A stretch of DNA of 64,000 bases from Actinomycetota bacterium (lineage in GTDB: Bacteria > Actinomycetota > UBA4738 > HRBIN12). Shown piece by piece: positions 5,367 through 37,068 of the stretch. A program made the translations under genes and the position numbers. The notes beneath the pieces are model-generated. The model saw nothing but the letters and a program-made list of their open reading frames with translations, ran no database searches and was not told the origin of the DNA. Numbering within the stretch: position 1 is the first letter of the stretch; each line of letters begins with the position of its first letter. The stretch is from the NCBI GenBank assembly GCA_035573995.1, contig DATLZM010000004.1, positions 7,649 to 71,648 on the forward strand, given 5' to 3'.

Positions 5367-7169
5367 GTGTGGCCGGGCGGCCGCGGCGGGCACCCGCCCG
5401 GACACGGTACAGTCGCGCCCGTGCGGGGCTCCCGGACTTCCACCCGGGCCAGGGTGGCCCTGGGGCTGCTCTTCTGCGGTTACCTGGGGTTGGCGGTCGT
5501 GGGCGGGGCGCCGAGGTCCCCCGTGGTCCCGCCCCCTCCTCCGGGAGTCCGGGGGCCGGGCTGGGCGACGGAGGGCGCCCGCCTGTTGGGCCTGGACCGG
5601 CTCGGGCCCCGGTCCCTGGCGGCCGTCTTCCTCGGCCTCCTGGCCCTGGCCGTGGCCTTATTCGCTCTGCTCCTACTGGAGGGCTGGCGGGGGCGGCTGA
5701 GCCTCGGGGCCGCCCTGGCCGGCACGCTGGCCTCGGCCGCCGTGATGGTGGCCGCTCCGCTCCTCCTCTCCCGGGACGTGTACAGCTACGCCGCCTACGG
5801 CCGCATGCTCGTGGTCCACGGGGCGGACCCCTACCGGGTCCCGCCCGCAGCGTTCCCGGGGGACCCCTTCACGCCGGTGGTGTCATCCCAGTGGCTCCAC
5901 ATGCGGTCCCTCTACGGCCCCCTGTTCACCTTGCTGAGCGGAGGCCTGGTCCGAATGGCCCCCGACCCCGGCTCCACCGTGTTCGGCTTCAAGGCCCTGG
6001 CTGGTCTCTCCCTCCTGGTGGCGGCGGCGACCACCGGGGCGGCGAGCCGGGCCGTCCGCCCGGGCCGGGAGGGCTTCGCCGCGGCCGCCGTGGGCCTCAA
6101 CCCGGTCCTGGTCGCCCATACCGTGGGGGGCGGGCACAACGATGCCCTCGTGGGAGCCCTCCTGGCGGGGGGACTCCTGGGGGCGGTGCGAGCCGTGCAG
6201 AGGCCGTCCACCCCTCCCCAGAGGCCCACCCCGCACAGCGCGAGAGGCCTCCACTCCGGCCATCTCTGGGGAGCGGCCGAGCTCGCGGCAACCCTCCTCT
6301 TGGCCCTGGCGGCGCTGGTCAAGGCGGTGGCGGCCCTTCCTCTCCTGGTCTGGTGGTGGTGGTTGGCCCGCTCGCGGTGGGAGGCCCGTGCCCCCGCCTC
6401 CCGGCCGGTGGGATGGAGGCGTTCCCTGGCGAAAGCGGCCCCGCACGTGGGAGCGGCCGCCCTGGTCGCCGGGGCCGTGACGCTTTCCGTCACCTCTGGG
6501 TGGTCGGCGCTCCGGAGCCTCGTCACCCTCGTCTCCGTGGAGGGGTGGGCGAGCGGAGCCCGACTCGTGGCCCGCGGGGCCCAGGCCCTGGGCGAGGCCC
6601 TGGGCGCGGAGGGGGCCGCCGCCGCCCTCCGCCTCGCGGTCCACGCGGGCTTCCTGCTCGTGGCCGCTTCGGCCACCTGGGCGGTGCTCCGCCGCACGGC
6701 GGCACGCCCGGGCGACCCTGCGGGGTTCCCTCAGGGGATGCGGTTGGCCGACGCGCTCGGCGTCCCGGTGCTCGTGTTCGTCCTGGGCTCTCCCTACCTC
6801 CTTCCCTGGTACGCGGCGTGGTTCGCGCCGTTCCTTCCCTTGCTCTCCGACCGCGTCCTGCGGCTGGCGGGCCTGGCCTGCGCGGGGCTCCTGGCCCTCA
6901 CGGCCGTCCCGGCGGAGCCCGCCTCTGACCCGGGCTTGTGGGGCGCGAGCCTCCTGGCGGTCCACTACGCGGTGGCCCCCCTGGTGCTCGTCCTGTTCGG
7001 GGCGGCGGTGACCAGGGTCCTGGTGCCCGGCGGGCTCCTGCCACGCACGGAGGGACGCCGCGCGCAGCGGGGTCGGGCCCCCGGCGGGTCGAGCCCCGGG
7101 CGGGGCCCCTACGGCGGCTCCTCGGGCGGGCCCACGGTGACCTCGAGGGCGCCGAAGGCCTTGGCGTAG
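5367..7169 (+). CDS. GT-C fold polytopic membrane glycosyl/mannosyltransferase (DUF2029 / GT87-MptB-like)
   Basis: 600-aa ORF with more than 10 hydrophobic helices and the loop motif LLLSRDVYSYAAYGRMLVVHGADPY typical of polyprenol-phosphate-mannose-dependent transferases. Start uncertain (GTG 5367 or GTG 5421). The 3' end overlaps the convergent SAF/CpaB gene by about 60 nt. Confidence 0.7.
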   Translation: MWPGGRGGHPPGHGTVAPVRGSRTSTRARVALGLLFCGYLGLAVVGGAPRSPVVPPPPPGVRGPGWATEGARLLGLDRLGPRSLAAVFLGLLALAVALFALLLLEGWRGRLSLGAALAGTLASAAVMVAAPLLLSRDVYSYAAYGRMLVVHGADPYRVPPAAFPGDPFTPVVSSQWLHMRSLYGPLFTLLSGGLVRMAPDPGSTVFGFKALAGLSLLVAAATTGAASRAVRPGREGFAAAAVGLNPVLVAHTVGGGHNDALVGALLAGGLLGAVRAVQRPSTPPQRPTPHSARGLHSGHLWGAAELAATLLLALAALVKAVAALPLLVWWWWLARSRWEARAPASRPVGWRRSLAKAAPHVGAAALVAGAVTLSVTSGWSALRSLVTLVSVEGWASGARLVARGAQALGEALGAEGAAAALRLAVHAGFLLVAASATWAVLRRTAARPGDPAGFPQGMRLADALGVPVLVFVLGSPYLLPWYAAWFAPFLPLLSDRVLRLAGLACAGLLALTAVPAEPASDPGLWGASLLAVHYAVAPLVLVLFGAAVTRVLVPGGLLPRTEGRRAQRGRAPGGSSPGRGPYGGSSGGPTVTSRAPKALA

Positions 7170-23720: not shown

Positions 23721-26424
23721 GTGGGGTCGGTCGCCCTGTCCCGAGGGTACCCGAAGCACCGGGAGGCGGACGTGGTCCTCCGGGACGGCTCGACCGTCCG
23801 GATCCGCCTCGTCCAGCCGGACGACCGAGAGGGCATTGCCGAGTACCTGCGGGGGCTGTCCGAGCAGTCCCTGTATCTCCGGTACTTCGCGAGCGTCGTG
23901 GACGTGGACCGAGCGGCCCGGTCCGCGGTGGACGTGGACTACCACCGGCGCTTCGGGCTCGTCGCCACGGCGGGGCCGGAGAAGCGGGTGGTGGGACACG
24001 CCGTCTACCTGGCGACGGACACGGACCGAGCGGAGGTGGCCCTGGCCGTGGCCGATGCCTACCAGGGCCGGGGCCTGGGAATTATCCTCCTGGGCCACCT
24101 GGCGGAAGTGGCCCAGGAGCACGGCATCGCGGTTTTCGAGGCACGGATCCTCCCCCAGAACCACCGGATGCTGGGGGTGTTCCGCGAGAGCGGGTTCCCC
24201 ATCCACATGCGCTCCGAGCCTGGGGAGATCCTCGTCCAGTGCCCGACGTCCATCTCCGAGGAGGCGCTGGAACGCTTCGAACGGAGAGAACAGACGGCCG
24301 CGGCCGCTGCCCTACGGTGGTTCCTGGCTCCGCGGTCCATCGCGGTGATCGGGGCCTCACGGTCCCGGGGGACCATCGGAGGGGAGATCTTCCACAACCT
24401 CCTGGCCACCGGCTTCAACGGCCCGGTCTATCCGGTCAACGCCAACGCCGACGTGGTCCAGTCCGTCCTCGCGTACCGCTCGGTTCGGGACGTGCCGGGC
24501 CCGGTTGACCTGGCCGTCATCGTGGTCCCCGCAGAGAGCGTGGTCGCCGTGGCCAGGGAGTGCGGGGAGAAAGGGGTCCGGGCTCTCGTCGTGATCTCCG
24601 CTGGGTTCGCCGAGACCGGGAGCCAGGGGCGGCGCCGACAGGAGGAGCTCCTGGCCGTCTGCCGTCAGTTCGGGATGCGGCTCATCGGCCCCAACTGCAT
24701 GGGCATCATGAACACCTCGCCCCAGGTCCGCCTGAACGCCACCTTCGCCCCCACCTTCCCCCCGCACGGCCGGGTGGGCTTCCTCTCCCAGAGCGGGGCC
24801 CTGGGGCTGGCGGTGGTGGACTACGCGGCGGCCCTGGGCCTCGGCCTCTCGTCCTTCGTGTCGGTGGGCAACAAGGCCGACATCTCCGGGAACGACCTCC
24901 TCCACTACTGGGAGGCGGACGAGGAGACCGACATCATCCTGCTCTACCTGGAGTCCTTCGGGAACCCACGCAAGTTCGCCCGCATCAGCCGACGGGTGGC
25001 CCGGCGAAAGCCCATCGTGGCGGTGAAGAGCGGCCGGACCGCGGCGGGGGCGCGGGCCACCACCTCGCACACGGGCGCGCTCATCGCCGCCTCCGACGTG
25101 ACGGTGGAGGCCCTGTTCCGCCAGGCGGGGGTGATCCGGACCGACACGCTCGAGGAGCTGTTCGACGTGGCGGCCCTGCTGGCCACCCAACCGCTTCCCC
25201 AGGGGGACCGCGTGGCCATCCTCACCAACGCCGGCGGCCTGGGCATCATGTGCGCCGACGCCTGCGAAGCGGCCGCCCTCAAGGTCCCGCCCCTTCCGGC
25301 CGCGACCGAGGCGCGGCTTCGATCCTTCCTTCCTCCCGAGGCCGCGGTGAGCAACCCAGTGGACATGGTGGCTTCCGCCACTGCGGAGGACTACGCACGC
25401 GCCATCGAGGCCCTGTCCTGGGACGAGACCGTGGACGCCCTGATCGTGTTGTTCGTCCCCCCGCTGGTCACCCGGCCGGAGGAGGTGGCCCGGGCCATCC
25501 GCACGGCGGTGGCGGCCATGGTCCGACCCCTCCCGGTTCTTACGGTCTTCCTCTCCGCTCGGGGGGTGACGGGGGAACTCCAGGAGGGGGACGTGCGCAT
25601 TTCCCTCCTACGCGTTCCCCGAAGCGGCTGCCCGGGCCCTGGCCCGGGTGGTGGAGTACACGCGGTGGAGGAATCGACCGGAGGGTCCGGTCGTAGCGTT
25701 CCCCGACGCGCGGCGGGAGGAGGCCGCGGCGACGATCGCGGCGGCCCTGGAAGGGGGGCCGCGGTGGCTGGACTTCGAGGAGGTGGCCCGGCTCCTGTCC
25801 TGCTATGGGATCGCCCTCGCCGCGTGGCGGCTGGCGGGGACGGCGGACGAGGCGGGGGCGGTCGCCCGGGCCCTGGAGGGTCCGGTGGCCCTCAAGGCCC
25901 TCGTCCCGGGGCTCCTGCACAAGACGGAGGCGGGAGCCGTGCAGCTGGGGCTCGCAGGCGAGGACCGGGTCCGGACGGCCGCTCGGGCCATGGCCGAGCG
26001 TCTGGCCGAGCAGGGGTACTCGGTCCAGCGGTTCCTGGTCCAAGTGCACGACCGGCAGTTCGGACCGGTGGTGGCCTGTGGAGCCGGGGGCACGGTGGTG
26101 GAGCTGCTCAGGGACGTCCAGGTCCGGATCACCCCCCTCACCGAAATGGACGCCAGGGAGATGGTCCGGGCCCTGGCCACCTGCCCGCTTCTCGAGGGAT
26201 GCCGGGGGGCGCCGCGAGCCGACGTAGCGGCCCTGGAAGAGCTCCTGCTCAGGGTGAGTGCCATGGTGGAAGCCCACCCCGAAGTGGCGGAGATGGATCT
26301 CAACCCGGTGATGGTCCTCCCCTCGGGCTGCACGGTCGTGGACGTCAGGGTGCGGGTCGAAGTCCCCGAGCCCCTGCTCCCTCTGGGAGCGCGGCGTCGC
26401 GACGAGCTGGCTCAGTACCGCTGA
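23721..26424 (+). pseudogene. GNAT acetyltransferase fused to ADP-forming acyl-CoA synthetase (Pat-like), interrupted by a +1 frameshift near 25600
   Basis: Frame of 23721: GNAT (VRIRLVQPDD...AYQGRGLGIILL) + CoA-binding/ligase (IAVIGASRSRGTIGG...GPNCMGIMN...SQSGALG...VSVGNKADISGND) up to ...QEGDVRI. Homology then continues in the frame of ORF 25648..26424 (FPSYAFPEAAARALARVVEYTRWRNRP...ATP-grasp...EMDLNPVMV). One extra T in run 25600-25602 separates the frames. Confidence 0.8.
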
Positions 26425-27128
26425 GACGGGTCGGGCATCAGCCCCCAGGTCGGAGGAAGGGTCGGTCGCTGGGACACGTCGTCCACGACGTACTCGAGAC
26501 GGTTGTCGACCCCGACGACCCCGTCCACCCCCTGGACCAGGGCCACCACCATGGGGATCATGCTTCGCTGCTCGATCGTGCCCTCAAGGTGGACGATGCC
26601 GTCTCTGACCTCCGCCCGGATCGTGCCCGGCTCAAGCCACAGCGTGTGGTAGAGGATCCGCTCGGCGACCTCCTTCTGGATCTCCTCGTCCGAACGCAGG
26701 AACACCTTCAGGAGGTCCGCCCGACTCACGATCCCGACCACCCGGCCCTCCGCGTCCACGACCGGCAGCCGCTTGACCCGACGAGCGTGCATGAGGCGGG
26801 CCGCCTCCTGCACCGTGGCCTCGGGGCTCACCGTCACCGCCGGCTGCGTCATGAGCTGGCGAGCCACGAGGCCCGTGGCCTTCCGTCGCTCGCGGCGCTT
26901 CCGCCCAAACGCGATCAGGCCTCCCTTCCCCTCTCCTGGTGGCTCGTACTCCTCCTTGAGGAGCAGGTCGGCCTCGGAGACCACCCCCACGACCCGCCCC
27001 TCCGGGTCCACCACCGGCAACGCGCTGATGCGGTGCTCGTGGAGGAGCCGCACGATCTGCTTGAACGGGGCCGAATCCGACACCGTGACCACTGCGGTCG
27101 TCATGACGTCACGTACCCTGGCGTCCAT
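26412..27128 (-). CDS. CBS-CBS-BON domain protein, paralog 1
   Basis: 238 aa from ATG 27128 (CCAGAAGGAGGCGAGC upstream): VRDVMTTAVVTV...ISALPVVDPEGRVVGVVSEADLL; ARQLMTQPAVTV...VKRLPVVDAEGRVVGIVSRADLL; BON: EVRDGIVHLEGTIEQRSMIPMVVALVQGVDGVVGVDNRL. Confidence 0.85.
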   Translation of the reverse strand: MDARVRDVMTTAVVTVSDSAPFKQIVRLLHEHRISALPVVDPEGRVVGVVSEADLLLKEEYEPPGEGKGGLIAFGRKRRERRKATGLVARQLMTQPAVTVSPEATVQEAARLMHARRVKRLPVVDAEGRVVGIVSRADLLKVFLRSDEEIQKEVAERILYHTLWLEPGTIRAEVRDGIVHLEGTIEQRSMIPMVVALVQGVDGVVGVDNRLEYVVDDVSQRPTLPPTWGLMPDPSQRY

Positions 27129-27301
27129 GCTCGCCTCCTTCTGGCCGGGCGCTCCTGCCCGGCCCGTCCGCCTCCATGGTGGGGGGCAACGGTGGCTCGT
27201 CTTAGGGCCGAACGGCCCGCGAGCGGCGGGCCTCGGTCCTCCGGGGGTCGGGCCGTAGCCGGCCCGCGCGGCCGGAGTTTCCCTCGGGTGGTCGCGGCCT
27301 C

Positions 27302-27940
27302 CTAGACCTGGGGCTCGACCGGGGAGGAGTCCGAGGGGGCCAGACGGGGGGCCCACAGAGGATAGGGGATCCCGGCCAGACGGTTGATGGCGAACCCCTG
27401 CACCACCAGCAGCAGCACGCCGAGGAGGAGGACGCCCAGCTGGTTGAGCTGGGTCAGGAGTCCCAGGCTCACGATGAGGGTGGTGGCTCCGGCCGGCGGG
27501 TGGGGGACCCGGAGCCAGGCCATCAGCCCGGCGGTGAGGCCGAGGGAGAGCGCTGCGGCCCCCACCCGAGAGGCCGAGATGCCTACGGCCAGGGCCGGAC
27601 CCGCGTCGCGCAGCCCGAATGCCCAGAGGGACAGGTAGCCGGCGGCAGCCCCGATGAGGTGGCCGGCCAGGGTGTTCCGGGGGGAGGCCGTGGGGGCGAG
27701 GGGTGTGTAGAAGAGGAGGAAGGCGGTGGGGCCCAGGGAGGGGAAGACGAAGGGTTGGCGGGTGACCAGAGCCGCGAGGGCCATGACCCCGATGGACAAG
27801 AACCCGTTGACCAGCGCGAAGAGGCCGAGGACCGCCGTCGAGTTGTAGCGGCTCATGAGCGGGGCCAGCCGGAACCGACGGGCCAGCCCGAGGACCACGT
27901 CCGACATCCGGCCCCACGGCTGGTACCGCTCCTGGTTCAT
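27302..27940 (-). CDS. HPP-family membrane protein (family with reported nitrite transport members)
   Basis: 212 aa from ATG 27940. Multiple TMs and the signature LRVPHPPAGATTLIV. 4-nt overlap with the upstream small membrane gene. Confidence 0.85.
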   Translation of the reverse strand: MNQERYQPWGRMSDVVLGLARRFRLAPLMSRYNSTAVLGLFALVNGFLSIGVMALAALVTRQPFVFPSLGPTAFLLFYTPLAPTASPRNTLAGHLIGAAAGYLSLWAFGLRDAGPALAVGISASRVGAAALSLGLTAGLMAWLRVPHPPAGATTLIVSLGLLTQLNQLGVLLLGVLLLVVQGFAINRLAGIPYPLWAPRLAPSDSSPVEPQV

Positions 27941-28248
27941 CGCTGTCCGCGCGGGGCGGTCAGCCAGACGGTCAGGGCCACCAGGAAGGAGAGGGCCTGG
28001 AAGCCGAGGAGCCACCACACGGGCCGCACCTCGCCCCGGAGCCAGGAATCCAGCGCCACGGTGAGGCCCCACAGCTGCCCGAGGACGACGGTGGCCACGA
28101 CGGCGATCCGCGCGTGGAGCATGGCGGCCCGCCACGGGTCCCGGTCCCAGCCGGCTCCGGGCCCCGGCCCGGTGGACGACGGCCTCGGATGGCGTGCGTC
28201 CCGAGGACCGCCGTCTCCGGAGCGGCCGTCCCGACGGTCAGCCTCCAT
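27937..28248 (-). CDS. small membrane protein (charged N-terminus + 2 TM)
   Basis: ATG 28248 with GGCGGAGGGACGCG upstream (alternative ATG 28122 lacks an SD). ...MLHARIAVVATVVLGQLWGLTVALDSWLRGEVRPVWWLLGFQALSFLVALTVWL. Confidence 0.4.
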   Translation of the reverse strand: MEADRRDGRSGDGGPRDARHPRPSSTGPGPGAGWDRDPWRAAMLHARIAVVATVVLGQLWGLTVALDSWLRGEVRPVWWLLGFQALSFLVALTVWLTAPRGQR

Positions 28249-28753
28249 CGCGTCCCTCCGCCGTTCCCACCGCGTAGATCCCGTCGGGTCGCTCTTCCAG
28301 GACCACCCGGGGCAGCGGCCGGGGCGGAGGCCCCGCCAGGACGGCCCCGGTGGCGGGGTCGAAGGCCCCGTTGTGGCAGGGGCAGTGCAGCTCGGAGCGC
28401 TCCGGGCGCCAGACCACCGCGCACGCCAGGTGGGTGCAGACGGCCGAGTAGGCGACCAGGCGCCCGTCCCAGAGGCGCAGGGCGATGGCCTGGTCGTCGG
28501 GCCCCGGGTAGTTGAAGTAGCGGGGCTCACCCCGTTCCAGGCGGGAGGCGATCTTGAGCGGTGGCGCGGACCCCGCTCCGTGCCGGCGGAAGGCACCGGC
28601 CGCCACCGCGACGGTGCCCGCGAGGAGGCCACCGGACACGGTGACCAGGATGCGGAGGTAGTCCCGCCGGGTGATGGGAGCGTCCTCCCGGATCCGGTCC
28701 AGCAGACTGCGGATGGACGGGTCCCGGTCCCCGGAAAGTCCGCTCCCTCCCAC
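28238..28753 (-). CDS. Rieske [2Fe-2S] protein with twin-arginine signal/anchor
   Basis: ITRRDYLRILVTVSGGLLAGTVAVAAGAF (Tat motif + hydrophobic segment). Cluster ligands CTHLAC...CPCHNGAF. Confidence 0.85.
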   Translation of the reverse strand: MGGSGLSGDRDPSIRSLLDRIREDAPITRRDYLRILVTVSGGLLAGTVAVAAGAFRRHGAGSAPPLKIASRLERGEPRYFNYPGPDDQAIALRLWDGRLVAYSAVCTHLACAVVWRPERSELHCPCHNGAFDPATGAVLAGPPPRPLPRVVLEERPDGIYAVGTAEGRDGG

Positions 28754-28754
28754 T

Positions 28755-29321
28755 TCACATCCCTCCCGGCGCCGCTTCCTCCCGGTAGTGGGGGGAGAGG
28801 ACCACTGCCACCCCGGTCCGAACGGAGGTCGCGCCGAACGCCACCACGTCGGTCACCCTGACTCCCGGTCGCTCGCGCTCGAGCTCGGCCAGGGTGCCGT
28901 ACCAGATGGATCCGGTCGGGCAGACCGTGGCGCACATGGGGGCCAGCCCCTCGGAGGTGCGGTCGTAGCAGAGGTTGCACTTGTACTGGAGGAGCTCCTC
29001 GGGAGCCAACTTGGGGACTCCGAACGGACAGGCGTGAACGCAGTTCGCGCACCCGATGCACCGTTCCTTCATGGCTTCCTGGACCACGCCGTCAGCGGTG
29101 ATGAGGATGGCGTCGGCCGGGCAGACCTGGGCGCAGGGAGCCACCGGGTCCTCGCAGTGCATACAGACGGTGGGCATGGCCGCCACGGACCGGCCCACCT
29201 CGAGGTAGTCGAGGTGGATGAGCGACTTGCCCCGGTGGGAATCGCACTCCCGGCAGCCCACGACGCAGGCCTGACACCCGATGCACCGCGCGGGGTCGAT
29301 GAACAGGGTTCGACCCATCAT
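28755..29321 (-). CDS. 4Fe-4S ferredoxin-type electron-transfer subunit (DmsB/FdnH/NrfC-like, four cluster motifs)
   Basis: 188 aa from ATG 29321: CIGCQACVVGCRECD; CMHCEDPVAPCAQVCP; CIGCANCVHACPFG; CNLCYDR...CATVCP. ATGA overlap with the catalytic subunit stop. Confidence 0.9.
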   Translation of the reverse strand: MMGRTLFIDPARCIGCQACVVGCRECDSHRGKSLIHLDYLEVGRSVAAMPTVCMHCEDPVAPCAQVCPADAILITADGVVQEAMKERCIGCANCVHACPFGVPKLAPEELLQYKCNLCYDRTSEGLAPMCATVCPTGSIWYGTLAELERERPGVRVTDVVAFGATSVRTGVAVVLSPHYREEAAPGGM

Positions 29322-31609
29322 CGGTCCGCCGTTCCCCTCCCCTGGGGCACCCTGGGCAGTGGCCCTTCCTCGGCTGTCTTCACCTCGTCCCGGTACGGTT
29401 GCTGCCCCGGTGGAGGGGGCGGGGTCGGGACCGGTTCGAGGTCGGAGGCCCGCTCCAGCCGGCACGCGCAGACCTTGTACTCGGGGATCTTCGACACGGG
29501 GTCCAGGGCCACGATGGTGAGGGTGTTGGCTGCGGCTGCGCCCGGCCAGTGGTAGGGGATGAAGACGGTGTCCGGTCGGATGGTCTCGGTCACGAGGGCA
29601 GGGAAGGTGGCCGTCCCCCGTCGGGTCACGACCCGGACCGGTTCGCCGTCCGTGAAGCCGAGGGAAGGGTGGACCTCGACCCACGGTCGGGGGGCCTGGT
29701 CGACTAGGGCCGGGATGCGCCGGGTCTGGTTCCCGGAGAGGTAGTGGGCCACGGTCCGGCCGGTCGTGAGCCGGAGCGGGTAGGCCTCGTCGGGCTCCTC
29801 GGCCGGTCCGCGCCACTCTACCGGGTGGAACCGGAACTTCCCGTCGGGGTGGTAGGAGCGGAGGTCCTCGAACAGCCGGGGCGTTCCCGGGTGGTCGGGG
29901 GAGGGACACGGCCAGAAGATCCCGTCGGTCTCCTCGAGCCGCTCGTAGGTGATGCCGGAGTAGTCCACGACCCCGCCCCGGGACACGGTCCGGAGCTCGT
30001 CGAAGACGTCCCGGGGACACGAGAATCCGAACCGATCGCCCTGGCCCAGCCGTCGGGCGAGCTCGCACATGATCCACCAGTCCGGCCGGGCCTCGCCCGG
30101 GGGGTCGGCGGCCCGGTTCACCTTGACCACCCGCCCCTCGGCGTTCGTGTGGGTTCCCTCGTCCTCCGCCCACGTGGCTGCGGGCAGGACAACGTCCGCC
30201 CGGGCGGCCGTCTCCGAGAGAAAGAAGTCGACCTGGGCGTGGAACTCCAGGTTCTCGTAGGCCCTGGTGACCCACTGCCGGTCGGGGAGGGAGACCAGCG
30301 GGTTGTTGCAGAAGCCCACCACCCCCCGGATCTCCCCCCGCTCCATCTGTCCGATCATCTCCACGAACGATGTCCCCTTGCCGGGGAGGTCCCGCTCGTC
30401 CACCCCCCACGCGGCCGCCACGGCCCGACGGTGCTCGGGGTCCTCGATGTCGCGGCCTCCCGGGAGCTGGTCCGACTTCTGCCCGTGCTCCCGCCCGCCC
30501 TGGCCGTTGCCCTGACCCGTGATCGTGCCGTACCCGGCGCCGGGGCGGCCGAGCTGCCCGGTGGCCAGGACCAGGTTGATCACGGCCAGGCAGTTCTCCG
30601 TGCCCTGGGTTCGGTGCTCGATCCCACGGGCGTGGAGGGCCATGGCCCGATCGGCCCGGCCCCAGAGCCTCCCCACCTCCTCCACCTGGGCCACCGGGAC
30701 CCCGCAGATCTCGGCTACGTGCTCCGGCGGGTAGGCGGCCACGACCTCCCGGACCGCCTCCCAACCCGTTGTGTGCTCGCGGATGAAGTCCTCGCGCAGG
30801 AGACCCTCCCGGACCACCACGTGGAGGATCCCGTTGAGGAAGGCGGCGTCCGTGCCTGGCCGGAGGGCCACGTGGATGTCGGCCGTGCGGGCGACTGGGG
30901 TCTCCCGGGGATCCACCACGACCAGGCGGGCCCCACGGTCCCGGGCCGCCCACAGGTAGCGAGTCAGGACGGGGAACGTCTCCCCAACGTTCGCCCCGCA
31001 CACCAGGACGACCTGGGTGTGGATCAGGTCCTCCCACGGGTTGGCGGCCCGGTCGATCCCGAAGGCCAGCTTGTTGGCGGCCGCCGCCGAGACCATGCAC
31101 AGTCGGCCGTTGTAGTCGACGTGGCGCGTCCGCAGGGCCACCCGGGCCAGCTTGCCCAGGAGGTAGGCGTTCTCGGTGGTCATGCTGGCCCCTCCGAGCA
31201 GGGCGAACGCGTCGCGGCCGTACGTCTCCTGGATCCTCCGGACCTCGGAGGCCACGCGGTCCAGGGCTTCCTCCCAGGAGGCCCGCCGGAAGGGTCCGCC
31301 CTTCCGGTCCCGGACCAGGGGGTGGAGGAGCCGGTCGGGGTGGTTGACCTGCTGGTAGGCCACCACCCCCTTGGGACAGAGCTTCATGCGGTTGATGGGG
31401 TGGTCCCGGGGCTCGACCCCGAACACCCGGCCCTCCCCGTCCACTCGCAAGTACATCCCGCACTGCACGCCGCAGAAGGGGCAGTGGGTCGGGACCAGCC
31501 GCTCGCGCCCCCGCTCGGGGGCCTCCCAGCGGCCAGCAGGCTCCGCCCCCTCCCCTCGGAACTCGCCCACGCCGGGCGGGACCACGGGGAACGGCAGCTT
31601 CCGCCTCAC
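29318..31609 (-). CDS. molybdopterin (bis-MGD) oxidoreductase catalytic subunit, NarB/NasA-like, no signal peptide
   Basis: 763 aa from GTG 31609 (GTGA overlap with the upstream gene). HCPFCGVQCGMYL...KLCPKG 4Fe-4S motif; ...VVDPRETP..., GQGNGQGGREHGQK, C-terminal IPYHWPG...ANTLT...DPVSKIPEYKVCACRLE. The upstream 360 residues of ORF 29318..32689 are non-coding-like. Confidence 0.9.
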   Translation of the reverse strand: MRRKLPFPVVPPGVGEFRGEGAEPAGRWEAPERGRERLVPTHCPFCGVQCGMYLRVDGEGRVFGVEPRDHPINRMKLCPKGVVAYQQVNHPDRLLHPLVRDRKGGPFRRASWEEALDRVASEVRRIQETYGRDAFALLGGASMTTENAYLLGKLARVALRTRHVDYNGRLCMVSAAAANKLAFGIDRAANPWEDLIHTQVVLVCGANVGETFPVLTRYLWAARDRGARLVVVDPRETPVARTADIHVALRPGTDAAFLNGILHVVVREGLLREDFIREHTTGWEAVREVVAAYPPEHVAEICGVPVAQVEEVGRLWGRADRAMALHARGIEHRTQGTENCLAVINLVLATGQLGRPGAGYGTITGQGNGQGGREHGQKSDQLPGGRDIEDPEHRRAVAAAWGVDERDLPGKGTSFVEMIGQMERGEIRGVVGFCNNPLVSLPDRQWVTRAYENLEFHAQVDFFLSETAARADVVLPAATWAEDEGTHTNAEGRVVKVNRAADPPGEARPDWWIMCELARRLGQGDRFGFSCPRDVFDELRTVSRGGVVDYSGITYERLEETDGIFWPCPSPDHPGTPRLFEDLRSYHPDGKFRFHPVEWRGPAEEPDEAYPLRLTTGRTVAHYLSGNQTRRIPALVDQAPRPWVEVHPSLGFTDGEPVRVVTRRGTATFPALVTETIRPDTVFIPYHWPGAAAANTLTIVALDPVSKIPEYKVCACRLERASDLEPVPTPPPPPGQQPYRDEVKTAEEGPLPRVPQGRGTADR

Positions 31610-32634
31610 CCCGAGAACCCCCGCTTCACGTGTTCGAGGTACGCCCGCCCCCGCCGGACCCGCTTGCACCGGGGGCAGGTCCTGGCCCACTCGGAGAACC
31701 CCAGGCCCACTTCCTGCATGGTCCGCTCGAGGTTCGTCAAGAACGCCTCGGCCTCGAGGGGTTCGCCGCACTCCCGGCATGCCACGAGGCCCGTCCGCTC
31801 GGCACTGGTGCGTTTGAAGACCTCCACTCCGACTTGCGCCGGCCGCTGGATCACGTGGAAGAACTTCCCGAAGGGGATGAACACCAGGGTGAGGACGACC
31901 GAGGCCATGTGGACGAGGGCCAGGAAGTCGTAGCCGCGACCGCCCAGGACGAGGCTGGAGAAGGTGAGCAGGAGCCCGGTCACCGAGATCACCACCAGGG
32001 CGAGCAAGGGCAGGAAGTCGTACCCCAGGCGCTGACCGGTGGTGGCCTCGCGGTCCCGGCTCCGCCGCCAGAGGAAGTACCCGCACCCCGCCAGGACGAG
32101 CACGGCCGAGATGTCCAGGCCATGGAAGATGACCCACCCGAGGAACGACAGGGGGTCGAAGGTCAGGGTCCGGAAGCCCCACAGGTGCAAGACATACCGG
32201 GGCCTCGGACCGGGGACGGCCTGGAAGTAGATCCACCCGAAGACGAGGGGGAACGTGATCAGGGTGGCCAGGACCACGCCCCAGAAGACGAGCTGGTGGG
32301 CGGCCCAGCGCCCCTTCCCTCGAGCCGCGATAAACCGCTGGAGGGTGAGGGATTCCACGAGCGCCCGCGGGACCAGGGTGGGGAACCGGGCGAAGTTGCG
32401 CCAGGACAGGAAGGACCGCCAGCCGCGGACCAGGAGGCGGCGAGCTGGGGGGCTCTGCACCCACATCACGTAGCGGTAGACGACCCCGAAGGTGAGGAAG
32501 ACGATGGCCACCGCGTAGCCGACAAGGGCGGAGTCGAAGGTCCGCAGACGGCCGCTTCCCACGTAGATCGCAGCGACGAGCCCCACGGCTGCCACGGCAC
32601 CGACTGCTGTGGCCGCTACTTGCTGCCGCCTCAT
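31606..32634 (-). CDS. polytopic membrane subunit, NarI/DsrM-like (putative di-heme cytochrome b) with C-terminal CxxC...CxxC tail
   Basis: 342-aa ORF, about 6-7 TMs, His in TM helices (AAHQLVFWG, IFHGLD, LVHMASV), terminal motif IPFGKFFHVIQRP, then ACRECGEPLE...CPRCKR. ATG 32634. Confidence 0.6.
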   Translation of the reverse strand: MRRQQVAATAVGAVAAVGLVAAIYVGSGRLRTFDSALVGYAVAIVFLTFGVVYRYVMWVQSPPARRLLVRGWRSFLSWRNFARFPTLVPRALVESLTLQRFIAARGKGRWAAHQLVFWGVVLATLITFPLVFGWIYFQAVPGPRPRYVLHLWGFRTLTFDPLSFLGWVIFHGLDISAVLVLAGCGYFLWRRSRDREATTGQRLGYDFLPLLALVVISVTGLLLTFSSLVLGGRGYDFLALVHMASVVLTLVFIPFGKFFHVIQRPAQVGVEVFKRTSAERTGLVACRECGEPLEAEAFLTNLERTMQEVGLGFSEWARTCPRCKRVRRGRAYLEHVKRGFSG

Positions 32635-32695: not shown

Positions 32696-33949
32696 TCAGG
32701 ACGAGGGGGTGGCCGCGTCGGGGTCCCAGGTCGGGCGCCCGTGTCGGGTGAAGAAGTCAGTTTCGGCCAGGAGAGGGTGGACCCACGCCTTGGCCAGCGC
32801 CAGGCCCCCTCCGAAGAGGGCTGCCACCGCTCCCAGCGTGGCGAGGAGGGGAGGCACGACTCCGGCAGTCCCCAGCGCGAGCAGCGCCAGGCCCGCATTG
32901 AGCGCGCCGAGTTGGACCCAGCCTCCCCACTCCACCGCCGAGAGGAGCCGCCGCCGTTTCTCTGGGTGGGCGCGTCGCCCGGCCGGCAGGAGATACAGCC
33001 ACGCTCCTAGCAGGGTCTGCAGCACCCACCCACCCCCGAGGGTCACAAGGAACAGGTCCCGCCCGGTGGCCAGCCAAGCCGCACCGTAGCTCAGGCCCAC
33101 CACCGTCCACCCCACGCCCCCAACGAACCACAGAAGCGCGAGGAGGAGATGCCGGCCGGCGATCGGCACCGGCCACCGCCGGGGAGCGGACATCACCCTC
33201 CGGACCATCTCCAGGAGCCCGGCCACGCCAGCCAGGTACACCAGGCCTCCTGCCACTGCGACCGGGGTGACCGCCCAAGCGAGACCGAGGGCGGCGAGGC
33301 CGACCCCCGCTGGCAGCAGCCACTCGGTCAGGCGGCCTGGCCACCTTGGCATTCTGACCCGCAGAACGGTGGGAAGGAGGGTGACAAGGGTGGCGGCGAT
33401 GGTGACCGAAGCCCAGCCCAGCACGTTGAGCACGATGTGCGCGGCTCGCAGTCCCAGCCAGCGTTCTCCGGCAACGACTCCAGCCCCCAAGAGCGTGCCA
33501 ATTGTCCCGCCACCCAGGAGGAACACCACCGCTGCCAGGTAGAGAGCGACGGGGAGTCGGTGCCGCAGGTGCAGAGCCTGCCGCCGCGCTCGGAGGACGA
33601 TCCACCCTAGGAGCAGGGCCCCACCGAGAAAGGCGGACCCACCGACCGCCACCAGTTGGGGCACCTCCACCATCCGTCCGGCCACGACCAGGGCGGCACC
33701 GACACTTACCAGGCCGAACTGACTCCAGGTCATCCAGGACGGTGGGGGCGGAGTGGCGGTGAGCGCGGCCACGAAGGTCTGCATGGCACCGCTGATGGCG
33801 AGGGAGACAGCCCCGGTCAGGGCCAGGTGGAGAGGAACCCACCACCCCAGGCGGAGTCTCTCCGGCAGCAGGAGGGAGGCCGCAGCCGCGGTCAGCCAGG
33901 CCCGGGACGCAGTCTGATAGAGGCGCATGGTGTCTCGCGGCCTCATCAC
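32696..33949 (-). CDS. 12-TM membrane protein of unknown function (conserved intramembrane His; NnrS-like topology?)
   Basis: 417-aa ORF, continuous hydrophobic helices, PLHLALTGAVSLAISGAMQTF and AAHIVLNVLGWASVTIAA repeats. No family recognised with confidence. Confidence 0.5.
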   Translation of the reverse strand: MMRPRDTMRLYQTASRAWLTAAAASLLLPERLRLGWWVPLHLALTGAVSLAISGAMQTFVAALTATPPPPSWMTWSQFGLVSVGAALVVAGRMVEVPQLVAVGGSAFLGGALLLGWIVLRARRQALHLRHRLPVALYLAAVVFLLGGGTIGTLLGAGVVAGERWLGLRAAHIVLNVLGWASVTIAATLVTLLPTVLRVRMPRWPGRLTEWLLPAGVGLAALGLAWAVTPVAVAGGLVYLAGVAGLLEMVRRVMSAPRRWPVPIAGRHLLLALLWFVGGVGWTVVGLSYGAAWLATGRDLFLVTLGGGWVLQTLLGAWLYLLPAGRRAHPEKRRRLLSAVEWGGWVQLGALNAGLALLALGTAGVVPPLLATLGAVAALFGGGLALAKAWVHPLLAETDFFTRHGRPTWDPDAATPSS

Positions 33950-34133: not shown

Positions 34134-35261
34134 TCACCGACAGGTGGATGTCTGAGCCGAGGGCCTCAGGACCTCCTCGATCCTGCCCTGCCAGTCCGGC
34201 ACCACGCTGGCCGCGGCCCGTAGCATGCCGAAACACCCGGTCAGCATCTGGTCCCCGTAGGGTGCCGGGAACCGCACCGGAAGACGGCTGCCCTTGAGCA
34301 GGGCCCGCCTGGGTCCCGTCACCGCCACCACGCTGGGCGAGGATGGGGTCCGGTCCCTGGTCCACGCGCCGTGGCCGTGCTCCTGGAAGACGGTCTCGTG
34401 GTCGATGGTCCCGCGAGCCAGGTCCTCGAGCAGGTCCTCCAGTCGGGCCCGGTCCAGCAGGCCCGTGTGGTGCTCGAAGAGGCCGCCCACCAGGCCTCCT
34501 CGAAACCGGAAGGCCAACGTGTGGAAGGTCCCCACGTTCACCACCAGGCTCTCCGGCTGAGCTCGCACGTCAGGATCCTCCAGGGCACCCAGGGCAGCGG
34601 CGGGTCCCGTGTCCATCACCACCACCGGGACCTCGGTGGCTTCACGGGCCACCCGCGCCACCCCACGCATCCTCGTCATCGAGGCCGGGATGTCCTCGGC
34701 GCGGTACGCGAAGGACTCCAGGCTGCCCTGGCGCAGCCGTTCCGCCAGGTACTGCAGCCGGAACAGCCGGTCGCTCGTTCCCGGGGGAGCCTCGCCGTGG
34801 TCGAAGACGCCGACCACCAGGCCGTCCAGCTCGAGCTCGACCCCGAAGGACCGGAACACGGCGCCGATCCGGTCCAGCTCGAGGTCCCGGAGCCGGATCC
34901 GCTCCACCCCTCGCAGCCTCGCGGCTTCGTCGTCGCTCACCACGCGGAGTCCGAGTTCGCGCTGGAGGACAGTCAGGTCGTCGTCGAAGGTCCGGGCGGC
35001 TTCCGGGGTGGCATAGAGGGGCAGACCGGCCCTGGCGTGGTCACGGGCCGCCCAGTGGGAGGGGCCGCCGCCCATGGTCGTCCCCACCAACAGGACGGGA
35101 CGTCGTCCGGCCGTGGCCCGGCGGATCCGCTGGGCGACCAGGACCGTGGGCGCGGGCATCACCAACTTCAGGAAGGCCTCAGGGTCCCTCCCGCTCTCGA
35201 AGAGAACGACGTCCTGGGTACCCGTGCCTACGTCGACCGCGAGCAGCCTCAGGCCTGGCAC
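34134..35261 (-). CDS. DUF1786-family (ASKHA-like) protein
   Basis: LLAVDVGTGTQDVVLFESGRDPE...MGGGP...VVVMDTGPAAALGA...VNVGTFHTLAF... resembles DUF1786. Start uncertain: GTG 35261 (VPGLRLLAVDVG) or TTG 35405. Confidence 0.55.
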   Translation of the reverse strand: MPGLRLLAVDVGTGTQDVVLFESGRDPEAFLKLVMPAPTVLVAQRIRRATAGRRPVLLVGTTMGGGPSHWAARDHARAGLPLYATPEAARTFDDDLTVLQRELGLRVVSDDEAARLRGVERIRLRDLELDRIGAVFRSFGVELELDGLVVGVFDHGEAPPGTSDRLFRLQYLAERLRQGSLESFAYRAEDIPASMTRMRGVARVAREATEVPVVVMDTGPAAALGALEDPDVRAQPESLVVNVGTFHTLAFRFRGGLVGGLFEHHTGLLDRARLEDLLEDLARGTIDHETVFQEHGHGAWTRDRTPSSPSVVAVTGPRRALLKGSRLPVRFPAPYGDQMLTGCFGMLRAAASVVPDWQGRIEEVLRPSAQTSTCR

Positions 35262-35488
35262 GTCAGCCAGGCAGTTTCCGGTCCGGGTCGGTGGCTCCCA
35301 AAGGCCGATGGTCCCTGGAAATCCGGGACCCTTAGCCCTCCGCCGCCCACCGGCCTTTCGGTACCGTCCCGTCCACGACGCCGACTCGGCCGGTGGGGAC
35401 GCCAACCGCGCGGGGGGATGGGTCCCCCGTAGCGATCACCGGGGTCAGGGCATCACGGTAGGACGGCTGGGAAACCTGAGGAGGTGAC

Positions 35489-35989
35489 ATGGGACCGACG
35501 GAACCGATCGAGGAGTTCACCCGGATCTTCCGGGAGGAGCATCGCAGGGTGCGTGACGGACTGCTCGACCTGGCCGAGGCCTTCAGGGCCCGAGACCGGT
35601 CCCGGGCCCAGGCCCTCCTGCGGGACGTGGCCGAACTGACCGGCCCCCACTTCCGCTACGAGGAGGAGTCCCTGTACCCAGCCCTGGTCCGCATCTTCGG
35701 AGCCGCGTACGTCGAGAAGCTGCTGGCCGACCACGATCGGGCCATCGCCGCGGCCCGGAGGCTCACGGAGCTGGCCGGCGCGGACGAGCTGCGGGAGGAG
35801 GACGTGGAGGAGGCCACTGAGCTCGTCCGCCAGGTCCTGCCCCACGTGAGCGACTGCGAAGGGCTGTCGCTCATGGTGGAGCGCTTCGAGGAAGAGACTG
35901 TCCGTTCCATCCTGGACGCCAGGGCCCGGGCCCTGGACGAGGGACTGGACCTCATGCGGTGGGCGGAGGAAGTCCGCGGCCGACCGTGA
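35489..35989 (+). CDS. hemerythrin-like (HHE cation-binding) domain protein
   Basis: GAGGAGGTGAC before the ATG. FREEHRRVRDGLLDL...GPHFRYEEESLYPAL...LLADHDRA...LPHVSDCE gives His/Glu spacing of a four-helix hemerythrin domain. Confidence 0.7.
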   Translation: MGPTEPIEEFTRIFREEHRRVRDGLLDLAEAFRARDRSRAQALLRDVAELTGPHFRYEEESLYPALVRIFGAAYVEKLLADHDRAIAAARRLTELAGADELREEDVEEATELVRQVLPHVSDCEGLSLMVERFEEETVRSILDARARALDEGLDLMRWAEEVRGRP

Positions 35990-37068
35990 CGACGGGTCGC
36001 TTCAGGCGAGGGCTGCGGGCCGTGAAGGGCCCGGCGGTCGTTGCCGGCGTCCTGTGGCTGGGCCTGACCGCGCTGGGGGAGGTGGCCCTCTGGCGGCCCC
36101 GGTTCTTCCCCGGGCGCTATGCGGCGGAGGCGCAGCTCGTCGACTCGGCCTTCCTCCTCCTGGCCCGCCTGGCGGTTCCGGTGTTCGCGTTCGTCCTCTC
36201 CGTGCTGGTGGTGGCGGTGGCCCGCTTCCGGCACCGGCGGGGACCTAGGCAGGACGGCCCGCCCCTCCGGGGCGACCCGGTCGTCTACTCGCTGTGGCTG
36301 TCGCTCACCACGGCCCTGGCGCTGCTGGTCATCCTGAACCCGGGCCTCCTCGGCCTGCAGGAGCTCCAGCAACCGGTGGGGGAGCGGGACGAGCTGGTGG
36401 TGCGGGCCGAGGCTTCCCGCTGGTCTTGGGCCGTTACCTATCCGAACGGGGTGACCACGAGGGACGAACTCGTCCTCCCGGCCGGCCGTCGGGTGCGGTT
36501 CGAGGTCACCAGCACCGACATCCTCCACTCTTTCTGGATCCCTGCCTTCCGGCTGAAGGTGGATGCAGTCCCGGGCATGACGACGGTGGTCCACGCCACT
36601 CCGACCCGGGTCGGGTCGTCCGACCACGACCCGGCCCTTCGGGTCCAGTGCGCGGAGCTCTGCGGGCTGGGCCACTCCATGATGTCCATGCGGGTCCGGG
36701 TCGTTGACCAGGAGACCTTCGAGGCGTGGCTGCGGGGAACGACCCCGGGTCCAGCCGCCTGCGCCCCGGCCCGTGCCGAACTCCGGATCACGGCGGAGCG
36801 GATCGCCTTCGACCGGTCGTGCCTGGCGGTCCCCGCGGACACTCCGGTCACCCTCACCCTGGACAACCGCGACCAGGGCATCCCCCACAACCTGTCAGTG
36901 GCCCGAGACGAGGGCTTCACGGACGTCGTCTTCAGCGGGGAGATCTTCTCGGGGCCCGGGAGCCGGACCTACCGGCTGGGCCCGCTCCCGGCAGGCACCT
37001 ACTTCTTCCGCTGCGACGTCCACCCCGTCCCAGCCATGTCCGGCACGTTCATCGTGGAGGAGGGTTAG
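35986..37068 (+). CDS. ctaC: heme-copper oxidase subunit II (CuA) fused to a C-terminal type-1 (blue) copper cupredoxin domain
   Basis: GTG 35986 overlaps the hemerythrin stop (alternative GTG 35959). TMs, CuA site ILHSFWIPAF...CAELCGLGHSMM, then a second cupredoxin: TLDNRDQGIPHNLSV...GTYFFRCDVHPVPAMSGTFIV (His...Cys-X2-His-X4-Met). Confidence 0.85.
   Translation: MTTGRFRRGLRAVKGPAVVAGVLWLGLTALGEVALWRPRFFPGRYAAEAQLVDSAFLLLARLAVPVFAFVLSVLVVAVARFRHRRGPRQDGPPLRGDPVVYSLWLSLTTALALLVILNPGLLGLQELQQPVGERDELVVRAEASRWSWAVTYPNGVTTRDELVLPAGRRVRFEVTSTDILHSFWIPAFRLKVDAVPGMTTVVHATPTRVGSSDHDPALRVQCAELCGLGHSMMSMRVRVVDQETFEAWLRGTTPGPAACAPARAELRITAERIAFDRSCLAVPADTPVTLTLDNRDQGIPHNLSVARDEGFTDVVFSGEIFSGPGSRTYRLGPLPAGTYFFRCDVHPVPAMSGTFIVEEG

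Follow-up and report, generated by a model that had tools for sequence, protein, structure and literature searches.

A conserved actinobacterial operon encodes a candidate membrane-bound nitrate reductase-type complex that joins a NasC-like subunit to a cytochrome b and a Rieske protein

The DNA analysed here is a stretch of 64,000 nt (hereafter the window) from contig DATLZM010000004.1 of an Actinomycetota bacterium, with a GC content of about 72%, and its subject is an operon of six minus-strand genes that we propose to encode a membrane-bound complex of the nitrate reductase type. In the direction of transcription, the operon opens with a cytochrome b membrane anchor (31606-32634, 342 aa, ATG start), a predicted six-helix, two-haem protein with a C-terminal CxxC...CPRCKR domain that would lie in the cytoplasm. 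It is followed by a leaderless, NasC-like catalytic subunit of the Mo-bisPGD type with an N-terminal [4Fe-4S] motif (29318-31609, 763 aa, GTG start); a soluble FeS electron-transfer subunit of the 4x[4Fe-4S] kind (28755-29321, 188 aa, PF13247 Fer4_11); a bc-type Rieske [2Fe-2S] protein with a twin-arginine signal-anchor (28238-28753, 171 aa, GTG start, PF00355); a small DUF6755-family protein with two transmembrane (TM) helices (27937-28248, 103 aa, weak match to PF20540); and a lineage-specific sixth gene for an HPP-family membrane protein (27302-27940, 212 aa, PF04982). An earlier note, made from the sequence alone, had described these six genes as stitched together, and every coordinate was reproduced: all six open reading frames (ORFs) translate intact, and the recomputed junctions are a GTGA overlap at 31606-31609, an ATGA overlap at 29318-29321, a 1-nt gap at 28754, an 11-nt overlap at 28238-28248 and an ATGA overlap at 27937-27940. 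The motifs quoted there are likewise all in place (CPFCGVQCGM...KLCPKG, TRRDYLR followed by a hydrophobic stretch, CTHLAC and CPCHNGAF), and Pfam confirms the domains Molybdop_Fe4S4/Molybdopterin/Molydop_binding, Fer4_11, Rieske and TM_HPP. In the NCBI annotation, the Mo gene begins 8 codons further in, giving a protein of 755 aa (P0001), yet the length of 763 aa is shared by four close homologues. P0001 and P0121 are each 100% identical to a protein of the window.

The arrangement is not due to chance, and its core order recurs both in actinobacterial loci and in a second branch of the family. Homologues of the Mo subunit with 65-82% identity are plentiful in Actinomycetota, including Streptomyces, Kitasatospora and Streptacidiphilus. 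A pattern scan with this subunit, taking one genome per GTDB species, returned at least 591 relatives among the 600 matches listed, and the operon itself was confirmed for the best 80 of the GTDB matches listed, nearly all of them from Streptomyces. Our actinobacterial set comprises 88 loci, of which 82 are of the Streptomyces type (L001-L082, some 80 species) and six come from metagenome-assembled genomes (MAGs; L083-L088). By tblastn, the order cytochrome b-Mo-FeS-Rieske is kept in 82 of the 82 Streptomyces-type loci, and the small protein lies downstream of the Rieske gene in all of these except two shorter ones, as well as in the six MAG loci. The five-gene core is intact in the latter despite unrelated flanks, and the tight junctions are preserved in relatives too (L084 and L086, for example). 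The possibility that the Rieske gene was merely a chance neighbour in this strain, which the earlier note had envisaged, is thereby set aside: it is a universal partner.

The sixth position of the operon tells a different story. The HPP gene occupies it in the window and in four of the MAG loci (L083-L086), despite different flanks, and tblastn finds it in none of the 82 Streptomyces-type loci. In L087 the slot belongs instead to an anion channel of the SLAC1/TDT family, and in L088 to a NarK-family transporter of the major facilitator superfamily (MFS; 224 bits, E 3e-66). Wherever it is filled (the window and L083-L088), its occupant is thus an anion transporter, be it HPP, SLAC1/TDT or NarK-family MFS. 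The HPP protein, which the earlier note had counted as a partner, is therefore not part of the core and is lineage-specific; its suggestion that HPP hints at nitrate/nitrite chemistry has nevertheless held up, since other anion transporters replace HPP in the very same slot. The protein itself matches PF04982 (TM_HPP) with 92.4 bits, against a cutoff of 27.2. Some members of the HPP family are reported to transport nitrite, and the protein is probably a transporter of nitrite or of another anion for this system.

The second branch, a distant one, came to light when the profile of the cytochrome b family was searched exhaustively, which yielded 1152 cluster representatives, some of them 750-830 aa long. 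In these long proteins, a transporter of the NarK family (232-234 bits) makes up the N-terminal part, and the cytochrome b with its tail of four cysteines (Cys4 tail) follows in the same chain. Scanning JGI metagenomes with the fusion proteins gave at least 510 relatives among the 600 matches listed, and we assembled a set of 80 loci plus L092, the contig of protein P0364 (81 loci in all, GC 54-72%). NarK and cytochrome b form a single ORF in 77 of the 81. In L092, the ORF that follows the fusion overlaps it and begins the Mo subunit (...LVKTHCCFCGQQCGI). Mo, FeS and Rieske genes succeed cytochrome b in all 45 loci of sufficient length, and at least 37 of these 45 have directly after the Rieske gene a small two-TM ORF that scores 45-49 bits on DUF6755 (cutoff 27). 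The five-part module is old and widespread. The existence of many NarK-cytochrome b fusions also explains why the Prokaryotic Genome Annotation Pipeline (PGAP) names the unfused cytochrome b (P0121 and P0122, among others) 'MFS transporter', though it contains no MFS domain. Two apparent cytochrome b-Mo fusions (P0486 and P0498) look like frameshifted or garbled reads and were not used as evidence of topology.

The catalytic subunit matches PF04879, PF00384 and PF01568, all above cutoff. Its best NCBIfam model is NasC (NF047855), with 800 bits under a cutoff of 1100; the alpha subunit of formate dehydrogenase (FDH; Fdh-alpha, TIGR01591) comes second with 619 bits under a cutoff of 666, the haloarchaeal NasA model reaches 436 of the 1000 bits demanded, and the NapA, NarG and AioA models are far behind NasC. 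The narG model gives 57.6 bits against 1084 and narH 29 against 524, and the arsenite oxidase models also fall short (arsenite_ox_L 163.9 bits versus 359; arsenite_ox_S, for the Rieske protein, 44.7 versus 95.65). Membership in the NarG/NarH or Aio types was rejected on these scores, and a bc-type assignment likewise on model scores. Exact-sequence look-ups of the window protein and of P0001 returned no match. The four cysteines of the FS0 cluster (C43, C46, C50 and C78) are invariant. So are, in 88 of 88 sequences, the motif GRLCMVSAA[AG]ANK, in which Cys171 is followed by Met, and a second motif, T[IL]TGQGNGQGGREHG, with its TGQ and GGRE; NGRLCMVSA recurs in 66 of 66 Mo sequences of the second branch. 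The Cys-Met/TGQ pattern is typical of Nap and Nas enzymes. In several solved FDHs, E. coli FdhH among them, a Cys/Sec-His pair and an Arg-Gly-Gln triplet align with the Met and the Thr of our query; in FdhH the residues concerned are His141 and the catalytic Arg333. Replacement of the His and Arg by Met and Thr led us to reject a formate dehydrogenase, and the absence of these active-site residues makes formate oxidation unlikely. By its sequence, the catalytic subunit is closest to NasC, and nitrate reduction is its most likely predicted activity.

The FeS subunit has four complete Cys4 groups, and 17 cysteines are invariant in 75 distinct sequences; its NCBIfam matches (FDH-beta, DmsB, HybA and similar) are all under cutoff. 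Neither it nor the Mo subunit shows any sign of export: we found no signal peptide or TM helix in the former, and no twin-arginine motif, hydrophobic N-terminus or TM helix in the latter, in either branch, in agreement with the earlier description of a leaderless catalytic subunit.

The cytochrome b was harder to classify. The window protein has no Pfam match, including to the bc-type families PF00033 and PF13631, and its weak NCBIfam matches (E 1e-8 to 1e-4) are to QmoC, TmcC and TcuB, models that we take to represent NarI-like haem b modules. PF02665 is borderline in its relatives (20.8-22.9 bits for a cutoff of 22.9). A search of its profile against PDB sequences gave nothing meaningful, and Foldseek with the AlphaFold2 model (predicted local distance difference test score, pLDDT, 81.6) did not retrieve NarI, returning weak similarity to EtfD amid GPCR noise. 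The NarI-like label of the earlier note is therefore tentative: it comes from the histidine geometry and from these weak profile matches, and not from Pfam or the fold. The H242-x17-H260 spacing and the PFGKFFH motif presumably also resemble NarI. Across 89 distinct sequences, four histidines (H113, H171, H242 and H260) and four cysteines (C286, C289, C320 and C323) never vary. The hydropathy profile contains six TM helices; Lys and Arg residues number 35 on the N-terminus, odd loops and C-terminus, versus 6 on the even loops; H113 and H260 sit at the inner ends of TM3 and TM6, and H171 and H242 at the outer ends of TM4 and TM6. On this model, H113/H260 can hold an inner haem and H171/H242 an outer one. 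The second branch gives an independent hold on orientation: the C-terminus of a 12-TM MFS transporter is inside, and the N-terminus of a cytochrome b fused to it must therefore be inside as well, which, with six helices, leaves the Cys4 tail inside too. The sequence thus predicts an N-in, C-in topology with a cytoplasmic CxxC...CPRCKR domain.

On the other side of the membrane, the features of the Rieske protein fit an extracytoplasmic head domain. A signal of the form [ST]RR[DE]YLRI, followed by about 20 hydrophobic residues and (H/R)RHG, is found in 85 of the 88 actinobacterial loci, the remaining three being cases in which the pattern search picked a spurious upstream match; in the second branch, 41 of 45 loci have (R/K)YVxRR..KF and a hydrophobic stretch. 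The protein has a single TM helix at 35-53, and C106, H108, C111, C124, C126 and H127 are invariant, both disulfide cysteines included (boxes CTHLAC/CPCHNG in the window, CTHLSC/CPCH in the second branch). The twin-arginine anchor reported for the window is thus conserved, and it is confined to the Rieske protein. The DUF6755 protein is the small subunit of the module: the window copy reaches 19 bits on PF20540 (cutoff 27), and orthologues at the same operon position 31-49 bits.

This combination had led the earlier note to a puzzle, with a Rieske protein outside and Mo and FeS subunits inside, unless the latter hitch-hike on its signal. The predicted two-haem transmembrane cytochrome b would explain it most simply, because a protein with haems close to both membrane faces and a Cys4 tail on the inside can link an external Rieske protein with internal FeS and Mo centres. 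Our preferred reading, to which we give a probability of roughly 0.55, is that the operon encodes a membrane-bound, cytoplasm-facing complex of the nitrate reductase type with a subunit composition not described before. The leaderless Mo and FeS subunits would dock on the cytoplasmic face of cytochrome b, where the inner haem (H113/H260) and the Cys4 tail would lie, and on the opposite face the outer haem (H171/H242) would have the Rieske head and the DUF6755 subunit close by. Oxidation of menaquinol at the outer face would release protons outside, and electrons would travel through the two haems and the FeS chain to the Mo centre, where nitrate would be reduced to nitrite inside the cell. Proteins of the NarK, SLAC1 or HPP type would carry nitrate in and nitrite out, and the whole would amount to a NarGHI-like redox loop built on a NasC-type enzyme. 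The association, or outright fusion, of anion transporters with the system implies that a substrate or product crosses the membrane, and therefore that the Mo site is cytoplasmic. The case for nitrate itself comes from NasC being the best model, from the invariance of the Cys-Met and TGQ..GGRE motifs, from the NarK, SLAC1 and HPP partners and from a NirK-like neighbour in one locus (L085).

Several points weigh against this proposal. A plain Nar-like loop leaves the universal Rieske subunit unexplained, as NarGHI works without one; the Rieske protein may belong to the site of quinol oxidation, or it may trade electrons with extracytoplasmic carriers. The Streptomyces operons have no transporter gene. 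The cytochrome b matches no Pfam family and its best fold in the PDB, M. smegmatis EtfD, is a weak hit (E 0.04), while the Mo subunit stays under the curated cutoffs of both NasC and Fdh, so that we infer nitrate as the substrate. The complex is known here from sequence, synteny and single-chain models, and its activity, cofactors, orientation and electron flow are inferred from them. Finally, AioAB provides a precedent for a Mo subunit that lacks a leader and is exported by means of the Tat (twin-arginine translocation) signal of its Rieske partner. It is thus conceivable, albeit very unlikely in our view, that the Mo, FeS and Rieske subunits of the operon leave the cytoplasm together on the Rieske signal and reduce nitrate, or oxidise a substrate, outside the membrane, cytochrome b being a quinol-linked anchor. 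The restriction of a conserved Tat motif to the Rieske protein would suit such an export, and the best NCBIfam model of that protein is the arsenite oxidase small subunit, though at the modest score given above. AioA has moreover been placed within NasC/NasA (Wells et al., PMC7331816). However, an active site outside the membrane would have no use for the sixth-slot transporters, or for the NarK fusions that 77 of the 81 second-branch loci show. The placement of the two haems, one at each face, and the Cys4 tail on the inner side indicate a redox partner in the cytoplasm, and the operons of the fully annotated loci contain no Tat-chaperone gene.

The earlier note knew of no canonical architecture that combines these parts, and we found no characterised clade with such partners. 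The proposed complex would resemble NarGHI in its layout, in which a cytochrome b with two haems bears on its cytoplasmic side a Mo subunit together with an FeS subunit of several clusters, with quinol oxidation outside, nitrate reduction inside and an associated NarK. In contrast to NarGHI, its catalytic subunit is not NarG but a 763-aa protein of NasC/Nap type with a Cys ligand, its FeS subunit is a minimal one of 188 aa with 4x[4Fe-4S], its cytochrome b has six helices and a Cys4 tail without a PF02665 match, NarJ is missing, and Rieske and DUF6755 proteins are added. With NasC, NasA and NarB the Mo subunit has in common the domain set, the FS0 and Cys-Met motifs, and a leaderless, cytoplasmic nature, yet it scores under the NasC cutoff, and known Nas enzymes are soluble and fed by ferredoxin, flavodoxin or NAD(P)H modules. 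In arsenite oxidase AioAB and iodate reductase IdrAB, too, the Rieske protein has a Tat signal and the Mo subunit, a member of this broad clade, has no leader; however, the Mo of AioA has no amino-acid ligand and the cluster of that subunit is of the 3Fe-4S kind, and Aio is periplasmic and lacks both a four-cluster subunit and a cytochrome b anchor.

Haloarchaeal pNar offers another partial parallel, in that nitrate reductase genes (NarGH) are combined with those for a Rieske protein (NarB) and a cytochrome b (NarC; PMC7754194, PMC3509893). That enzyme, however, is NarG-type, bears its own Tat signal, faces outward and uses a true bc-type cytochrome b, whereas our operon encodes a leaderless Mo subunit of NasC type and a NarI-like cytochrome b. 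The Tmc, Hmc, Qmo and Dsr complexes and mycobacterial EtfD also use a NarI-like two-haem cytochrome b to link partners across the membrane, and QmoC, TmcC, TcuB and EtfD are the sole sequence or fold matches of the window cytochrome b. The partners there are CCG-type FeS proteins and cytochromes c, unlike the Mo enzyme and Rieske protein of our operon, which contains no gene for a cytochrome c in the window or in the annotated related loci. To bc1 and b6f the likeness is that of a Rieske protein with ligand and disulfide boxes.

The genes around the operon provide a context of nitrogen oxides. In L085, a gene for a NirK-like copper nitrite reductase and one for an Rrf2 regulator lie beside it, and in L088 an Rrf2 gene (6428-6850) is divergent and upstream. 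A hemerythrin-HHE gene is found near the operon in the window (35489-35989, plus strand) and directly after the DUF6755 gene in L167 (13782-14342); this recurrence may reflect a role in O2/NO sensing or in the repair of iron centres. In the window itself, tblastn with the relatives' proteins found neither NirK nor NarK. As a separate observation, a DsrE/TusA/pyridine-nucleotide-disulfide-oxidoreductase cluster follows the operon of L088 (13092-15713), sulfur-trafficking neighbours for which we have no explanation.

This context bears on two readings that leave the architecture as it is and alter its purpose. The complex could be a membrane-fed NasC making nitrite for ammonium synthesis rather than for respiration or redox balancing, an assimilatory role that we consider unlikely. 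NasC is indeed the closest model, and glutamate synthase genes lie near the operon of L086; in S. griseorubens, the transcript of a 797-aa NapA-like 'NarB', whose membership in this family is unconfirmed, rises with nitrate in assimilation (PMC4272520). However, no assimilatory nitrite reductase is present among the Pfam-annotated genes of the nine fully annotated loci, a haem b anchor with a Rieske protein is the architecture of a respiratory enzyme, and NirK-like and Rrf2 neighbours indicate dissimilation. Alternatively, a complex of the same architecture and orientation might act on another oxyanion (for example chlorate, selenate, tellurite or sulfite-type anions), which we hold to be distinctly unlikely. 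The shortfall of the Mo subunit from the NasC equivalog cutoff (800 versus 1100 bits) leaves room for this, the SLAC1/TDT family is annotated for tellurite and dicarboxylate, and the DsrE/TusA cluster beside the L088 operon could be read in the same sense. On the other hand, the active-site motifs are invariant in both branches, NasC is by far the best model, the commonest transporter partner is of the NarK family, and the NirK-like, Rrf2 and hemerythrin neighbours suit N-oxides.

Upstream of the operon by 61 nt, on the same strand, lies the gene for a 417-aa membrane protein (32696-33949) that could be an accessory gene, outside the conserved core. A homologue with 49% identity precedes the operon of L087 in the corresponding place, and the protein has no Pfam or NCBIfam match. 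Its AlphaFold2 model (pLDDT 92.5, predicted TM-score 0.90) has the fold of haem-copper oxidase subunit I/NorB, Foldseek retrieving CcoN (E 2.8e-5, TM-score 0.69), NorB (E 6.9e-4) and also ba3. The only invariant histidines in the family are H41, H171, H267 and H328, as opposed to six in canonical oxidases. JGI labels its relatives 'nitrite reductase (NO-forming)', and elsewhere the family occurs beside NirK-like and Rrf2 genes (L089) or beside genes of Mo-cofactor biosynthesis (L090 and L091). It is a candidate for a new family of NO-handling proteins. Between its gene and that of the hemerythrin, the window encodes a DUF1786 protein (34134-35405, minus strand; 238 bits, 'putative pyruvate formate-lyase activating enzyme'), with no link to the operon that we could see. 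Promoter and terminator scans gave no result and are uninformative in DNA of 72% GC, and Rfam returned no riboswitch and two tRNAs only, away from the operon. Because of the same base composition, very long spurious ORFs run antisense to real genes or overlap them (such as 23721-27305 on the plus strand, and entries of 1194 and 1123 aa), and ORF length alone is therefore no evidence for a gene here.

About 3 kb from the operon, a gene for cytochrome oxidase subunit II (CoxB; 35959-37068, plus strand) ends in a cupredoxin domain (36733-37059); the NirK-like proteins of L085 and L089 also have a cupredoxin at the C-terminus, which shares some 48% identity with that of CoxB. Speculatively, this shared cupredoxin could be an extracytoplasmic module for the entry of electrons that partners the Rieske protein. 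Such an acceptor would also suit a complex running in reverse, oxidising an anion such as nitrite at a cytoplasmic Mo site and sending the electrons out through the FeS centres, the haems and the Rieske protein to a high-potential acceptor. The universal external Rieske protein would then gain a clear role as exit port, the topology would resemble that of cytoplasm-facing nitrite oxidoreductases with, for instance, the nearby cupredoxin-bearing oxidase as acceptor, and NarK and HPP would be equally suited to importing nitrite and exporting nitrate. We give this little credence, however: no characterised member of the Nas/Nap clade works other than as a reductase, the nitrite oxidoreductases known so far belong to the NarG type (a model on which our subunit scores 57.6 bits), the carriers include hundreds of heterotrophic Streptomyces species, and a NirK-like neighbour suggests that nitrite is consumed downstream.

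The cupredoxin also invites a bolder form of the nitrate reductase reading, which we put forward as doubtful, in which the complex would be a hybrid, part nitrate reductase and part quinol oxidase of the Rieske/cytochrome b kind, splitting the oxidation of menaquinol at the outer face. One electron would pass through the two haems to cytoplasmic nitrate, and the other through the Rieske protein to extracytoplasmic cupredoxin enzymes (the NirK-like protein or the cupredoxin-CoxB oxidase). If this were true, a single machine would feed two steps of N-oxide respiration, and a NasC-like enzyme with a Tat-Rieske partner would be an evolutionary bridge from NasC/NasA to arsenite oxidase.

The complex is widely conserved and apparently undescribed: our literature search, whose coverage excluded subscription-only papers, found no description of the operon. 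Its distribution spans at least several hundred species, including a large share of Streptomyces, and many JGI metagenome contigs. Its parts are at present annotated as 'assimilatory nitrate reductase', 'MFS transporter', 'hypothetical' or 'DUF6755', and surveys of nitrogen-cycle genes would therefore misassign the complex or miss it. The operon contradicts the published generalisation that the Fdh/NasC/NasA/AioA/NapA clade is never associated with canonical four-cluster or membrane-anchor subunits (Wells et al., PMC7331816), and it may bear on the branching of AioA within NasC/NasA. It also supplies a context for DUF6755 and for an unnamed family of cytochromes b, and offers a testable connection of nitrate reductases and Rieske proteins with the question of how arsenite oxidase arose; the Streptomyces carriers, S. 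tsukubensis (CP020700, 3,138,948-3,157,275) and S. filamentosus JCM 4122 among them, bring genetic tractability. If our reading is correct, prokaryotic nitrate reductases would gain a further architectural class in addition to Nar, Nap and Nas.

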